From NCBI RefSeq assembly GCF_004010195.1, contig NC_057719.1:38763733-38827732 (forward strand): a DNA stretch of 64,000 bases, written 5' to 3'. Position 1 is the first letter of the stretch, and each line of letters starts with the position of its first letter. Under the pieces are notes generated by a model. That model was given only the letters and a program-made list of their open reading frames with translations. It did no database searches and was not told the DNA's origin. Positions 3,516-53,160 of the stretch are shown in pieces. The DNA comes from Chiloscyllium plagiosum. Taxonomy: Eukaryota. The position numbers were made by a program, and so were the translations under genes.

Positions 3516-3761
3516 TGTTCCCTGGATGCTGCCTGACCTGCTGTGCTGTTCCAGCAATAAAGTTTCAACTTTGATCTCCAGCATCTGCAGACCTCACTTT
3601 CTTGCAGTCTTCTGCAGTCTTCTTCTTGACCTCTCCGCCTCCATCCTACTCCGACCTATCACCCTCACCTTGACCTCTTTCCACCTATCACATTTCCAAC
3701 GCCCCTCCTCCAAGTCCCTCCTCCCTACCTTTTATCTTCTCCTGCTGAACACTCTCTGCTC

Positions 3762-3797
3762 ATTCCTGAAGAAGGGCCTGTGCCCGAAACGTCGAAT
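3762..3797 (+). ncRNA. Minimal hammerhead ribozyme motif in a PLE pseudo-LTR (core intact)
   Basis: ATTC-CTGAAGA(3766-3772)-A-GGGC ctgt GCCC-GAAA-C-GTC-GAAT. Stem I is ATTC/GAAT, stem II is 4 bp, palindromic ACGT replaces stem III, and predicted cleavage is after C3793. Confidence 0.8.
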
Positions 3798-3971
3798 CTC
3801 CTGTTCCCTGGATGCTGCCTGACCTGCTGTGTTGTTCCAGCAATAAAGTTTCAACTTGGATCTCCAGCATCTGCAGACCTCACTTTCTCCTGGATCTTCC
3901 TCCTGTTCTCCTGTGAAATGCTGTGGAAACTCTTTCCTAATACTTTATAAAAATTTTCTCTTGGCATGTGA

Positions 3972-6109: not shown

Positions 6110-6329
6110 AGAGTTGAGAGTGTGGTGCTGAAAAAGCACAGCAGGTCAGGCAGCATCCGAGGAGTAAGAGGATCAACGTTTCGGGCAAGAGCCCTTCATC
6201 AGGAATGAGGCTTGGATCTTGCCCGAAATGTCAATTCTCATGCTACTCGGATACTGCCTGGCCTGCTGTGCTTTTCCAGCACCACACTCTCGACTCTGAT
6301 CTCCAGCATCTGCAGTCCTCACTTTCTTC
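6110..6329 (-). mobile_element. Hairpin mini-element A derived from a PLE pseudo-LTR, hammerhead core on - strand
   Basis: Inverted arms plus a 3' tail; TSD cacatggtga at 6100-6109 and 6330-6339. Minus strand reads CTGATGA-A-GGGC tctt GCCC-GAAA-CGTT (6175-6202). Confidence 0.85.
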
Positions 6330-6494: not shown

Positions 6495-6710
6495 GACAAA
6501 GTGAGGACTGCAGATGTTGGAGATCAGAGTCGAGAGTGTGGTGCTGGAAAAGCACAACAGGTCAGGCAGTACCCGAGGAGCAGCAGAATCGACGTTTCGG
6601 GCAAGAGCCAAGCCTCATTCCTGATGAAGGGCTCTTGCCCGAAACGTTGATCCTCCTGCTCCTCGGAAGCTGCCTGACCTGCTGTGCTTTTCCAGCACCA
6701 CACTCTCGAC
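6495..6710 (+). mobile_element. Hairpin mini-element B (same family as A, opposite orientation), hammerhead core on + strand
   Basis: TSD acccatttaaatag at 6481-6494 and 6709-6722. CTGATGA(6621-6627)-A-GGGC tctt GCCC-GAAA-C-GTT. Confidence 0.85.
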
Positions 6711-16377: not shown

Positions 16378-16576
16378 CGAAAAGTGTGGCACTGGAAAAG
16401 CAAAGCAGGTCAAGCAGTATCTGAGCAGCAGGAGAGTTGGCATTCCTGATGAAAGGCTTACACCTGAAATGTCTGCTCTCCTGCTCCTTGGATGCTGCCT
16501 AACCTGCTGTGCTTTTTCAGTGCCACACTTTTCGACTCTGACTCTCCAGCATCTGCAGTCCTCACTGTCTCTCGAC
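16378..16576 (+). mobile_element. Hairpin mini-element (same pseudo-LTR family as A/B, different junction)
   Basis: Inverted arms; TSD attccttgtgt at 16367-16377 and 16577-16587. Degenerate core CTGATGA(16446)-A-AGGC ttac ACCT-GAAA-TGTC. Confidence 0.8.
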
Positions 16577-45261: not shown

Positions 45262-46367
45262 AGAAAGTGAGGACTGCAGATGCTGGAGATCAGAGCTGAA
45301 AATGTGTTGCTGGAAAAGCNNNNNNNNNNNNNNNNNNNNNNNNNNNNNNNNNNNNNNNNNNNNNNNNNNNNNNNNNNNNNNNNNNNNNNNNNNNNNNNNN
45401 NNNNNNNNNNNNNNNNNNNNNNNNNNNNNNNNNNNNNNNNNNNNNNNNNNNNNNNNNNNNNNNNNNNNNNNNNNNNNNNNNNNNNNNNNNNNNNNNNNNN
45501 NNNNNNNNNNNNNNNNNNNNNNNNNNNNNNNNNNNNNNNNNNNNNNNNNNNNNNNNNNNNNNNNNNNNNNNNNNNNNNNNNNNNNNNNNNNNNNNNNNNN
45601 NNNNNNNNNNNNNNNNNNNNNNNNNNNNNNNNNNNNNNNNNNNNNNNNNNNNNNNNNNNNNNNNNNNNNNNNNNNNNNNNNNNNNNNNNNNNNNNNNNNN
45701 NNNNNNNNNNNNNNNNNNNNNNNNNNNNNNNNNNNNNNNNNNNNNNNNNNNNNNNNNNNNNNNNNNNNNNNNNNNNNNNNNNNNNNNNNNNNNNNNNNNN
45801 NNNNNNNNNNNNNNNNNNNNNNNNNNNNNNNNNNNNNNNNNNNNNNNNNNNNNNNNNNNNNNNNNNNNNNNNNNNNNNNNNNNNNNNNNNNNNNNNNNNN
45901 NNNNNNNNNNNNNNNNNNNNNNNNNNNNNNNNNNNNNNNNNNNNNNNNNNNNNNNNNNNNNNNNNNNNNNNNNNNNNNNNNNNNNNNNNNNNNNNNNNNN
46001 NNNNNNNNNNNNNNNNNNNNNNNNNNNNNNNNNNNNNNNNNNNNNNNNNNNNNNNNNNNNNNNNNNNNNNNNNNNNNNNNNNNNNNNNNNNNNNNNNNNN
46101 NNNNNNNNNNNNNNNNNNNNNNNNNNNNNNNNNNNNNNNNNNNNNNNNNNNNNNNNNNNNNNNNNNNNNNNNNNNNNNNNNNNNNNNNNNNNNNNNNNNN
46201 NNNNNCTTGACCTCCTTCCACCTATCGCATTTCCAACGCCCCTCCCCCAAGTCCCTCCTCCCTACCTTTTATCTTAGCCTGCTGGGCACACTTTCCTCAT
46301 TCCTGAAGAAGGGCTTATGCCTGAAACGTCGATTCTCCTGCTCCTTGGATGCTGCCTGACCTGTTGC
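45262..46367. mobile_element. Young PLE insertion with inverted pseudo-LTR ends spanning an assembly gap
   Basis: 16-bp TSD gcttcatattaagggg at 45246-45261 and 46368-46383. Left end is the reverse-complement pseudo-LTR tail; right end has hammerhead CTGAAGA(46303)-A-GGGC ttat GCCT-GAAA-C-GTC. Confidence 0.85.
45320..46205. other. Assembly gap (N run)
   Basis: Run of N. Confidence 1.
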
Positions 46368-47097
46368 GCTTCATATTAAGGGGGCCCAGCTATGCATGTT
46401 TCTTTGTGGGTTAAGTTCCAGTCGTACTCAGGTCTCTCCCCATAAATTTTTCTCAGGTATATTGATGGTTGAACCAATGTTGCTACGTGCTCTTGCCTGG
46501 AATTATAAAAAAAATCAATTTTGTTTCCAATTTCCAGCCAACTCTCACCCTCACCTGGTCCATTTCAGAGCCCCTCTTACCTTCCCAGGCATCTTGTTTT
46601 CCACTTCTGGAGATAGACTGGTCATTAATATCCATTACAAACCCACTGAATCCTACAGTTATATCTGGACTAGACTCTTCACTCCCTCCTTCCATTCTCC
46701 CAGTTTCTCCATCTCCATCACATCTGTTCTTATGATGCTACGTTCTGCAAGAAGCCTCAGAAATGTTCAAATTTTTCTTCAATCCAGGATTCCCTGGCAC
46801 CATAGTTGACAGGGCCTTCAGCCATATCCAACCTATTTGCTGCACCTGCCCTCACCTCTTTCCTCCCCTCCCACAAAAATGTTCGGGTACCCTGGCCCTC
46901 ACTTTCCACCCCACCAGCCTCCGCATCCAAATGGTGATAAGCCACCATTTCTGCCACCCCCAGTATGATGCCAAGACCAAAAACATATACCGCTCCCTTC
47001 CCTTATCAGTATTCCTCAGAGTGTGTTACTTCTGGGACATCTGGTCATATGCTCCCAACACAACCTTTTTCCTCTTTCTACTTATATCGTTGATACT

Positions 47098-47405
47098 GGG
47101 GCGGCATGGTGGCACAATGGTTAGCACTGCTGCCTCACAGCGCCAGAGACCCGGGGTCAATTCCCGCCTCAGGTGACTCACTGTGTGGAGTTTGTACATT
47201 CTCCTTGTGTCTGCGTGGGTTTCCTCCGGGTGCTCCGGTTTCCTCCCACAGTCCAAAAATGTGCAGGTTAGGTGAATTGGCCATGCTAAGTTGCCTGTAG
47301 TGTTAGGTGAAGGGGTAAATGTAGGGGAATGGGTCTGGGTGGGTTGCGCGTCAGTGTGGACTTGTTGGGCTGAAGGGCCTGTTTCCACACTGTAAGTAAT
47401 CTAAG
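47098..47405 (+). mobile_element. V-SINE (HE1-like)
   Basis: Closely similar to 15732-16052. Confidence 0.9.
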
Positions 47406-48731: not shown

Positions 48732-49047
48732 TGGGGCGGCATGGTGGCTTAGTGGTTAGCACTGCTGCCTCACAGCACCAGGGTCCTATGTCTGATTCTG
48801 GCCTCGGGTGACCGTCTGTGTGGAGTTTGCACATTCTCCCCGAGTCTGCGTGGGTTTCCTCCGAGTGCTCCGGTTTCCTCCCACAGTCCAAAGATGTGCA
48901 GATTAGGTGAATTGGCCATGCTAAATTGCCCATAGTGTTAGGTGCTTTAGTCAGAGGGAAATGGGTCTGGGTAGGTTAATCTTCGGAGAGTCGGTTTGGA
49001 CTGGTTGGGCTGAAGGGCCTATTTCCATACTGTAGGCAATTTAATCA
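48732..49047 (+). mobile_element. V-SINE (HE1-like)
   Basis: Same head, V-domain and tail as the other two copies. Confidence 0.9.
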
Positions 49048-49524
49048 TATAATATAAGCTGGAGCTAGCAACTGGGGCACTTTGTTCCTGCTCTACCATT
49101 CAATAATGTCATAGTTGATCTTCTACCTGAACTCCACTTGCAACCTTTCCCTCCCTATCTCTATATTGGTAGATCTGGAGGAGGGATGCTAGTATCACTG
49201 CACAGGTAATCCAGAGTCCTGGCTAATGGTCTTGGGGGACACAGATTCAAGTTTTACTGTGGCATTGAAATTGAATTTAAATTCAATCAATAAATTTGGA
49301 TTGAAAGCTAGTTTTATAATCAATGAGACTATCATCGATTGTTGTAAAAACACATCCACTTCACTAATGGCCTTTAGGGAAGGAAATCTGATGTTTAAAC
49401 TTGTGTGGCAATGGAGTGGAAACCAAAGCTGTTGGTCAGCAAGTGAAATGACCAAGGAGGAGTTAAAAGACTAAAGCCAGTAAGGCTAAGAGGAAGTACA
49501 GACAGGGATAGGTTACTGAACATG

Positions 49525-49766
49525 GTGGAGTCAAGACTGGAGTGGTGCTGGAAAAGCATAGCAGGTCTGGCAGCATCCAAGAAGCAGGAAAATCGACGTT
49601 TTGGGCAAAAGCCCTTCATCAGGAACGAGGCATCATTCCTGATGAAGGGTTTTTGCCCGAAACATGAATTGTCCTGTTCCTCAGATGCTGTCTGACCTGC
49701 TGTGCTTTTCCAGCACCACTCTAATCTTGACTCTGATCTCCAGCATCTGCAGTCCTTACTTGCATC
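49525..49766. mobile_element. Hairpin mini-element with hammerhead cores on both strands
   Basis: TSD tactgaacatg at 49514-49524 and 49767-49777. Minus-strand core at 49595-49622, plus-strand core at 49639-49666, arms about 100 bp. Confidence 0.87.
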
Positions 49767-49956
49767 TACTGAACATGTGGGACTGACAGGCTGAAGTGTA
49801 TGTGTATTAACACGAAGTGAATGACAGGTAAGGCAGATGAACTTACAGCCTGAATTAGTGCACATAATAATGATGTTAAAGCTATTATAGAGACTTGATT
49901 GCATGAAGGGCAAAACTGACAGTCTAGTGTTCCAGGATTTAGATATTTCAGACATC

Positions 49957-51435
49957 GATAGTCACAGGTGAGGTGCCGGAAGACTGGAGGTTGGCAAACA
50001 TGTTGCCACTGTTTAAGAAGGGTGGTAAAGACAAGCCAGGGAGCTATAGACTGGTGAGCCTGACCTCGGTGGTGGGCAAGTTGTTGGAGAGAATCCTGAG
50101 GATGTATGTATTTGGAAAGGCAAGGACTGATTCGGGATAGTCCACATGGCTTTGTGCGTGGGAAATCATGTCACACAAATTTGATTGAGTTTTTTGAAGA
50201 AGCAACAAAGAAGATTGATGAGGGCAGATCAGTAGATGTGATCTATATGGACTTCAGTAAGGCGTTCGACTAGGTTCCCCAAGGGAAACTGATTAGCAAG
50301 GTTAGATCTCATGGAATACAGGGAGAACTAGCCATTTGGATACAGAACTGGGTCAAAGGCAGAAGACAGAGGGTGGTGGTGGAGGGTTGTTTTTCAGACT
50401 GGAGACCTGTGACCAGTGGAGTGCCACAACGATCAGTGCTGGGCCCTCTACTCTTTGTCATTTACATAAATGATTTGGATGCGAGCATAAGAGGTACAGT
50501 TAGTAAGTTTGCAGATGACATCAAAATTGGAGGTGTAGTGGACAGCGAAGAGGGTTACCTAAGATTACAACAGGATCTTGATCAGATGGGCCAATGGGCT
50601 GAGAAATGGCAGATGGAGTTTAATTCAGATAAATGCGAGGTGCTGCATTTTGGGAAAGCAAATCTTAGCAGGACTTATACACTTAATGGTAAGGTCCTAG
50701 GGAGTGTTGCTGAACAAAAGAGACCTTTGAGTGCAGGTTCTTAGCTCCTTGAAAGTGGACTCGCAGATAGATAGGATAATGAAGAAGACGTTTGGTATGC
50801 TTTCCTTATTGGTCAGAGTATTGACTACAGGAGTTGGGACATCATGTTGCGGCTGTACAGGACATTGATTAGGCCACTGTTGGAATATTGCATGCAATTC
50901 TGGTCTCCTTCCTATCGGAAAGATGTTGTGAAACTTGAAAGGTTACAGAAAAGATTTACAAGAATGTTACCAGGGTTGGAGGATCTGAGCCACTGCGAGA
51001 GGCTGAACAGGCTGGGGCTGTTTTCCCTGGAACGTTGGTGGCTGAGGGTTGACCTTATAGAGGTTTACAAAATTATGAGGGGCATGGATAGGATAAGTAG
51101 ACAAAGTCTTTTCCCTGGGTTGGGGGAGTCCAGAACTAGAGGGCATAGGTTTAGGGTGAGAGGGGAAAGATATAAAAGAGACCTAAGGGGTAACTTTTTC
51201 ACGCAGAGGGTGGTACGTGTATGGAATAAGCTGCCAGAGGATGTTGTGGAGGCTGGTACAATTGCAACATTTAAGAGGCATTTGGATGGGTATATAAATA
51301 GGAAGGGTTTGGAGGAATATGTGCTGGGCACTGGCAGGTGGGACTAGATTGGGTTGGGATATCTGGTCTGCATGGAAGGGTTGGACCGAAGGGTCTGTTT
51401 CCATGCTGTACATCTCTATGACTCTATGACTCTAT
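49957..51435 (+). mobile_element. Young 5'-truncated CR1/HER1 LINE (RT domain to 3' end)
   Basis: SGVPQRSVLGPLLFVIYINDLD...SKFADD...KWQMEFN; (ctctatga)n tail. Confidence 0.95.
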
Positions 51436-53160
51436 AACAGAGAGGGATGTAAGGGTTGGGGAGGGGTGGGTTTTGCATTACTAATTAGGGGGAATATCAC
51501 AGCTGTATTGTGGGAGGAGGGCTCATCCAGCAAGGCCATATGGTAGAATTCAGGAATAGGAAGGGTGCAATCACTTTGATGGGGTTGTACTGCAGGCCTC
51601 CCAATAGCCAGCGGGCGATCGAGGAGCTGATATGTGGACAGTTCATGGAAAATGTGAAAACAACAGAATTGTTATGATGGAAGATTTGACTGGGACTCAC
51701 TTAGTGCGAGGGGCTTGGATGAGAGGGGAATTTGTTAGGTGAGTTCAGGAGAGTTTCTTGAAGCAATATGTAAATAGTCCAAAGAGGCGAAGGTCTTACA
51801 AGACCTGGTACTGGTGATTGAGGTTTCAGTAAGGGGCATTTTGGGAACAGTGACCATAATTCCATAAAAGCTTTAAGTACTTGTGGATAAAGATCAGAGT
51901 AGTCCTCAGGCAAAAGTATTAAACTAGGGGAAGGTTAACTAACATTGGGCAGGAACTGGAAAATGTAGATTGGAGCTGGCTATTTGAGGGTAAATCCATA
52001 TCTGTCATGTGGGAATCTTTTAAAGGCCAGTTAGAGATGTACAGCATGGAAACAGATCCTTTGACCCAATTCTTCCATGCCGACCAGATATCCCAACCCA
52101 ATCTAGTCCCACCTGCCAGCACCTGGCCCATAACCCTCCAAACCCTTCCTATTCATATACCCATCCAGATACCTTTTAAATGTTGCAATTGTACTAGCCT
52201 CCACCACATCCTCTGGCAGCTCATTCCATACACATACCACCTTCTTTGTGAAAAAGTTGCCCCTTAAGTCTCTTTTATATCTTTCCCCGCTCACCCTAAA
52301 CCTATGTCCTCTAGTTCTGGACTCCCCCACCCCAGGGAAGAGACCTTGTCTATTTATTCTATCAATGCCCCTCATGATTTTATAAACCTCTATAAAATCA
52401 CCCTTCAGCCTCCAACAATATTCCAAAAGTGGTCTAATCAATGTCCTGTACAGACACAACATGACCTCCCAACTCTTGTACACAATACTCTAACCAATAA
52501 AAGAAAGTATACCAAACGCCTTCTTCACTATCCCATCTACCTGCAACTTACTTTCAAGGAAATATGAACCTGCACTCCAAGATCTTTTTGTTCAGCAATA
52601 CTCCCTAGGACCTTGCCACTAAGTGTATAAGTCCTGCTAAAATTTATTTTCCTTGATTGGACTTCAGGATCAGCAGTATTCCTATGAAAGTGAAGGATAA
52701 GGATGGCAAACTTCAGGAATCTTGGATGACAAGAGAAATTGTGATCTTAGTTAGAAAGTAAAAGGAAGCATACATAAGGTTTAGGAAACTGAGGACAACA
52801 GAGCTCTCGAGGAATATAAAGAAAACAGGAAAGAACTTAAACAAGGAAGTAGGAGGGCTAAAAGGTTCCAGGTAATGTTTTTAACGAACAGGATTAAGTA
52901 TTTTAGAGATACATAAGGAGCAAGAAAGTAGCTCGGGAAAGGGTAGGTCTACTCAAGGACAAAAGAGAACCGCACAGAGCCAGAGAAAGTGGGTGAGGTC
53001 CTTAACAATTACTTTGCATATTCACAAAGATCTTGGACAAGGTGGATGGTGAGTCTTGAGATGGGTATGTTGATATTTCAGGGCATGTCGATATAAAAAA
53101 AGCTGTTAGGTGTTTTGAAAAATATTAAGGGAAACAAGTTCTCAGGACCTGTATCCCCTG
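51436..53160 (+). mobile_element. Older CR1 endonuclease/tether region with a nested insertion
   Basis: RGGGFALLI, GLYCRPPNS and HFGNSDHNSI motifs. Confidence 0.75.
52033..52652 (-). mobile_element. CR1 3' fragment nested in an older CR1
   Basis: IEVYKIMRGIDR...WNELPEDVV, with an internal deletion relative to other copies. Confidence 0.9.

Follow-up and report, generated by a model that had tools for sequence, protein, structure and literature searches.

What is the origin of a short element in a shark genome that folds into a rod and carries a hammerhead motif on each of its strands? The locus in question, positions 49525-49766 of the 64-kb stretch of Chiloscyllium plagiosum DNA analysed here (the window), had been singled out in an earlier note for its viroid-like layout. 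The features on which that note rested, one hammerhead motif per strand, 16 nt apart and inside an 11-bp target-site duplication (TSD), were verified by coordinate: the duplicated sequence, TACTGAACATG, lies on the plus strand at 49514-49524 and again at 49767-49777, and the CTGATGA boxes of the two cores start at 49639 on the plus and at 49622 on the minus strand. Between the duplications stand two inverted arms of 101 nt each (49528-49628 and 49633-49733), which are 84% complementary and enclose a loop of 4 nt. With core C3 numbered 0 and the predicted cut placed between +27 and +28, the minus-strand arm (49528-49628), a 5'-truncated end of a Penelope-like element (PLE), ends about 94 nt downstream of C3 and has no tail; we refer to it as the near arm. 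The plus-strand interval 49633-49733 is the paired part of the tailed or far arm, a second 5'-truncated PLE end, which continues into a one-sided PLE tail of 33 nt (49734-49766, plus strand) and ends about 127 nt downstream of C3.

Folded separately, the two strands give rods of z = -18.0 (plus) and -17.3 (minus), with none of 200 shuffles equally stable. The rod shape described in the earlier note thus stood, while its length is about 207 nt instead of 240 bp, since the tail at 49734-49766 falls outside the rod. At the centre (49623-49638, assigned to no strand), two copies of the natural core-upstream sequence overlap at a self-complementary motif. The left junction was unchanged in an independent run (98 nt, 49472-49569), so the element is not an assembly artefact.

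Are the two ribozymes intact? The hammerhead call is a by-eye match to the published description of minimal hammerheads, whose core boxes, extra base before helix II, missing helix III loop and short helix I are all present; Rfam returned no hammerhead family match at E ≤ 1 anywhere in the window. The minimal type I cores occupy 49595-49622 on the minus strand, with a predicted cut between 49595 and 49594, and 49639-49666 on the plus strand. Hammerhead catalysis requires G12, and position 17 cannot be G. In the minus core, G12 has become A at 49602, a CpG site at which reads of the family show the other letter. The plus core has G16.2 changed to A (49664), C17 to G (49666), which is a transversion at the cleavage nucleotide, G1.1 to A (49667) and a helix II C to T (49650). 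Because the minus core has lost G12, and the plus core has lost G16.2 and carries G17, both cores of this copy are predicted to be dead. The lesions named in the earlier note (GAAA to AAAA and CG to CA) do both lie at CpG sites, but the changes of C17 to G and G1.1 to A in the plus core had been overlooked. The majority sequence of 30 exact-core loci disagrees with the plus arm at 8, and with the minus arm at 5, of 82 positions. Genome-wide, the intact-core motif of 39 letters has 2,071 exact occurrences, and both cores are intact in two of 15 core-reaching random pairs and in three of 15 selected loci, two of these three being neighbouring duplicates.

Two features of the core region may be recorded in their own right. 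In the interval corresponding to 49642-49695, subfamilies with T at core position 7 have an ATG within the core that opens a 17-codon frame; the frame of a lizard PLE likewise starts inside its hammerhead. The six bases before the core (49633-49638) resemble an initiator motif, and the commonest arm ends in the family are at -4 and -3.

To which parent do the arms belong? Searching the genome with the copy gave 3,394 candidates, 40 of which were scored, and the window itself holds five further loci of the family, two of them with natural upstream sequence. Walking upstream from the same core in long copies leads into a GIY-YIG frame and then into a reverse transcriptase (RT) frame, both broken in the copies read. 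One of five decayed parent frames matched RVT_1 in Pfam and the other four missed it; the closest database proteins, from bamboo shark, are 82-85% identical and point to a host among sharks of that lineage, and relatives carry RVT_1 together with GIY-YIG. A search of the genome for the GIY-YIG family gave a single weak match, and a PDB sequence search gave none. All six long copies inspected are 5'-truncated, the longest sharing about 3.2 kb, and none of the six supplied a full-length parent with a 5' pLTR. From this linkage in sequence, we take the arms to be pLTR ends of a Penelope-like retrotransposon that encodes an RT, a Cys linker and a GIY-YIG endonuclease. The linker of the parent reads C-x4-C-x2-C, and a C-x2-C lies between the two motif halves of the endonuclease. 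A CX2-5CxxC linker between RT and endonuclease and a CCHH in the endonuclease are described as Neptune and Nematis features (PMC8557442), and the parent shows both the Cys linker and the endonuclease cysteines. Neptune is favoured over Nematis because only Neptune and Poseidon are reported from vertebrates in a 2026 preprint (bioRxiv 10.64898/2026.07.22.740005). The parent is thus likely of Neptune type, a clade assigned by motifs rather than by a tree.

The layout of the copy proved to be common and regular. We sampled large contigs in 134 arbitrary stretches of 10 kb. The first 120 (1.15 Mb) held 235 arms, with 61 head-to-head and three tail-to-tail pairs, and all 134 (1.29 Mb) held 201 arms and 47 pairs under stricter cut-offs and with edge arms dropped. 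Extrapolation to the whole genome gives 130,000-190,000 head-to-head pairs; this copy's layout with both cores complete is shared by 12 of the 47, or about 33,000 genome-wide by extrapolation. A TSD, by a lenient match, flanks 47 of the 61 pairs, compared with 22 of 300 mismatched-flank controls. The 3' ends of the arms are bimodal, near ends falling at +75 to +95 and far ends at +120 to +129, and a pair nearly always combines one of each (58 of 61 and 46 of 47; p = 3e-13 against one half for the latter). Pairs of two far arms occur in neither sample, and 57% of unpaired arms are far. The copy studied here shows what is seen in EN+ PLE insertions: a 5'-truncated copy that is inverted and abuts at the 5' end, a one-sided tail of 30-40 bp (33 nt here) and a TSD (11 bp). 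Together with the RT/GIY-YIG linkage, these family statistics show that end-inversion of a PLE makes this layout, as the earlier note had supposed.

The other ends of the arms are equally structured. Of 201 arms, 91 have their 5' end at -12 to +3, nine at -44 to -13, and 30 are longer, so that the density of ends is 5.7 per base at -12 to +3 against 0.28 just upstream; the same pile-up near the core is seen in unpaired copies with a TSD. A further peak among arm ends, considered as a fossil of ribozyme cutting, was rejected. Of 67 downstream arm ends, 15 lay at +27 to +31 (p = 6e-4 when tested against a uniform distribution), including a segment-edge artefact, L083. Two independent genome-wide pattern lists, read by eye and confined to pairs whose other arm keeps the core, did not reproduce the peak, with 15 of 100 listed of 877 (about 16 expected) and 4-6 of 100 listed of 6,011.

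The window offers several neighbours of the copy. An older asymmetric palindrome of the same kind lies at 16383-16566; this one and the copy at 6.5 kb draw weak, false matches to microRNA precursors in Rfam. At 45265-46371 a longer inverted insertion has an 18-bp near-duplication on each side, with its tailed arm on the minus strand, an inner run of N and its tail-less arm on the plus strand. A head-to-tail partial tandem of another subfamily, with A at core position 7 and a perfect 4-bp helix I, lies beside a run of N at 3516-3885; such a same-strand tandem is the form that could give a dimeric, active hammerhead. The window also has CR1-type LINE fragments that include an inverted pair of 385 nt (49930-52500), and two copies of a SINE-like repeat (47097-47404 and 48732-49044); RNA reads ending in poly(A) are numerous for the family of the first copy.

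What kind of event joins two ends in this way? We regard it as probable that the copy consists of two short, mutated PLE ends, likely of Neptune type, joined head to head within an 11-bp TSD, likely in one insertion event by priming from both nicked strands. Priming from both nicked target strands is favoured by the combination of one tailed with one tail-less arm and by the stop of arms close upstream of the core. In the proposed sequence of steps, the enzyme of the element would nick both strands of the target, and each would prime reverse transcription on element RNA. One cDNA would begin at the far start site, around +125, and so include the tail, and the other at the near site, around +90; both would reach a fixed stop near -10 to -3, probably the 5' end of the RNA. 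The cDNA ends would often be trimmed and then joined via short self-complementary overlaps. The order of priming and the RNA end are what we infer from these patterns. As an end of the transcript, the stop left no further trace: RNA read ends do not pile up in a poly(A) single-cell library of which 2% was read, and a cap-derived G before the -4 base is not in excess among 56 unpaired arms (5 G against 4 A, a comparison of low power).

A precedent for such priming comes from in vitro work on a lizard PLE: both target strands are nicked and extended, and synthesis begins at two internal sites, between which the tail lies (PMC11167929). The site reported there at 111-118 nt into the frame corresponds, by placement of the start codon, to about +113 to +126 here, close to the far ends. 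However, the start site in vitro did not differ between strands (PMC11167929), and the strict rule of one far and one near arm would therefore need some further asymmetry.

The main rival keeps the PLE identity but has a single strand fold back on a short palindrome and copy itself, with trimming afterwards. Self-priming of this kind, on an antisense template, was proposed by Arkhipova et al. (2013; PMC3846280), and it would account naturally for arms of one subfamily: partner arms agree in the subfamily letter at the loop-2 site in 22 of 23 cases (8 expected), and are 93.4% alike as opposed to 87.5% alike to other loci, although 5 of 40 fall into the lower half of the ranking. This concordance, though, fits fold-back copying, gene conversion and two primings on one RNA equally well. 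Small palindromes at many centres also suit a fold-back, as does the self-complementary hexamer that some long copies carry immediately 5' of the core. Against it, of 47 pairs the tail-less arm has the greater 5' reach in 24 and the tailed arm in 12, with 11 ties, a distribution that a single fold-back cannot yield; the tail-less arm stops at a fixed second site that unpaired copies use too; and many centres are short overlaps or contain inserted bits. Fold-back stays the main rival for two reasons. Asymmetric deletion at palindrome centres after insertion could shorten either arm and so make the tail-less one look longer, which weakens the case against fold-back, and in vitro the start was strand-independent. 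On balance, we consider fold-back unlikely and two-strand priming the better account of the pairing.

If each pair is built at its own insertion, the centres should differ, and they do so to a large extent. Two half-cores within 30 nt of each other occur at 2,825 exact loci genome-wide, and the 50 of these that were listed hold 48 distinct centres by eye. Such per-copy centres argue that the hairpin is rebuilt at each insertion instead of spreading as a unit. The earlier note had counted uniqueness of the centre junction to this copy against its own reading, and the junction is unique in part: the exact 28-nt form was found once among 34 loci fitting a degenerate pattern, yet a perfect-palindrome relative, two substitutions away, recurs at 31 loci. 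This recurrence speaks for a non-autonomous, palindromic mini-element that would be transcribed and retrotransposed as a unit; also in its favour, the best 30 matches share the length and ends of this copy, although similarity to this copy was itself the basis of the ranking. But the recurrent centre comes with different arm subfamilies (15 loci fetched by its pattern span at least three), and long copies have the self-complementary hexamer AGGCCT at the position of the centre (e.g. locus L142). A recurrent centre in at least three subfamilies and a natural self-complementary hexamer imply that the centre can re-form on its own. Besides the distinct centres, a unit of this kind is opposed by the lack of a consistent letter difference between tailed and tail-less arms (one of 82 positions, a CpG site). 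We therefore regard a retrotransposed hairpin unit as very unlikely and largely refuted.

Two cases of shared centres deserve mention. In the window, the palindromes at 6119-6324 and 6499-6704, 175 bp apart and each with its own TSD, have an unusual asymmetric centre in common. Copying of one from the other, or from a single RNA, may explain this and would make the pair a local departure from the rule of rebuilding at each insertion. Elsewhere, two palindromes 1.2 kb apart (L234 and L235, at G000:C1:10199827 and 10201065) have a near-identical unusual centre of 23 nt, with all four cores intact.

Could such a rod nevertheless live as an RNA? In a viroid-like or retrozyme-like reading, it would be cut by the hammerhead of each polarity, circularised and copied at the RNA level. 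A highly paired rod whose two strands both bear a hammerhead motif invites this idea, although these are motifs only and both are mutated here. It gains further from the copies that retain both cores, from RNA reads that match the family in both directions, and from the circles of plant retrozymes and viroids, which also hide the ribozyme by pairing (PMC7229834). Viroid and retrozyme circles arise when multimers are cut at sites on the same strand and the products are closed, as described in PMC7761336, PMC7229834 and bioRxiv 10.64898/2026.07.22.740005. Here, the arms are inverted, unlike the head-to-tail units of a retrozyme tandem, every one of which has a type I hammerhead, and a single cut site per strand yields no unit-length monomer of the kind that lies between two same-strand sites in a viroid. 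The element ends at the TSD and at RT start sites, not at cut sites, and its two polarities are two copies of one motif. Minimal hammerheads, moreover, did not cleave as monomers in the experiments described in PMC4209133.

Folding poses a second obstacle, since on both strands the antisense arm is made before the ribozyme. Freeing the core with helix II is predicted to cost 39.1 kcal/mol on the plus and 32.1 kcal/mol on the minus strand, for the whole element and the nascent RNA alike, compared with about 4 kcal/mol in a lone arm; the predicted probability of helix II is 1e-14 and 1e-10, and by these predictions the ribozyme does not fold in the nascent strand, as it would in a viroid. The caveat in the earlier note that the long hairpin competes with ribozyme folding was well placed, the effect being large (32-39 kcal/mol as predicted). 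In this model, a hairpin transcript would hide the ribozyme on either strand, with no self-cleavage, circularisation or replication to be expected.

Nor do the RNA reads point to a discrete molecule. In the poly(A) single-cell library (2% read; species by label), 2,485 reads match at 85% likeness, 26 of them at 99% or more, and none of the 2,485 lies on the unique flanks beside the element; reads on the family with none on unique flanks make this a family-level signal. The read ends show no pile-up, and the library, of a type poor for circles, gave no sign of circular or discrete RNA. The rod fold is present on both strands, and no back-joined read stands among the joints listed for this library. 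With no pair of cut sites on one strand, no circular or discrete RNA seen and a centre particular to each copy, the viroid framing of the earlier note is not supported, and we judge a self-copying RNA here to be highly improbable; its viroid-like look is most likely a by-product of insertion. An equally slender chance attaches to a weaker version, in which some young rods with both cores intact are transcribed and, aided by the protein of the element or by a partner RNA, are cut and closed as rod-like circles. If true, Penelope end-inversion would be a standing factory of tens of thousands of rods, and a route from a retrotransposon to vertebrate viroid-like RNAs.

What can be learned, then, from this locus? 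The copy at 49525-49766 is a dead insertion without sign of function, and its layout is a published form of PLE insertion that is very common in this genome. A literature search whose coverage left out most subscription papers found none on these shark stubs, and none joining Penelope, inverted terminal repeats and twin priming; on Penelope-like elements and hammerheads in sharks it found a single review. The importance of the family is modest and lies in two points. PMC8557442 describes the way in which PLEs form inverted ends as undefined, and the near-strict pairing of tailed with tail-less arms, with a stop upstream of the ribozyme, makes two-strand priming directly testable in the system of PMC11167929. 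For viroid-like RNA discovery, the family is a warning that shark rods with hammerheads in both polarities, at about nine per megabase, can be genomic retroelement debris.

Among known systems, the closest are the EN+ PLE insertions, Pen2a_Av and others. As in the shark, a 5'-truncated copy is set head to head, with a one-sided tail of 30-40 bp and a short TSD (PMC3846280; PMC8557442), a palindrome at the junction, and a parent with RT and C-terminal GIY-YIG (PMC3846280). In PMC3846280 the pLTR is inverted, a tail of 31 bp sits at one end, the TSD measures 9 bp and head-to-head junctions contain palindromes; the same scheme appears for PLEs in PMC8557442. Here, by comparison, both halves are only 95-135 nt long and hold no ORF, the stubs number about 10^5 by extrapolation, and the rule of one far and one near arm has been quantified. 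The minimal hammerheads of metazoan PLEs share with the shark cores the type I order, the extra base before helix II, a G-C first pair of helix II, the short helix I and the absence of a loop 3, with a palindromic CG (PMC4209133). Pairs of hammerheads on opposite strands, 100-700 bp apart, were already noted in Schistosoma, where helix II has 7-8 bp as opposed to 4 bp here (PMC4209133); the shark motifs are only 16 nt apart. PAc, the green anole Poseidon element of PMC11167929, resembles the shark family in having its hammerhead near the front, in nicking and extending both target strands, and in having two internal RT start sites, one on either side of the tail, at a similar distance from the ribozyme. 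It belongs to another clade, the shark parent having a Cys linker, and its start site is strand-independent in vitro. Avsunviroidae and viroid-like circular RNAs are likewise small and highly paired with a hammerhead motif on both strands, and metazoan non-LTR retrozymes carry a PLE-related type I hammerhead (PMC7761336, PMC7229834, bioRxiv 10.64898/2026.07.22.740005); these, however, are circles from same-strand tandem multimers, whereas the shark element is an insertion in DNA, inverted in layout and with a single cut site on each strand.
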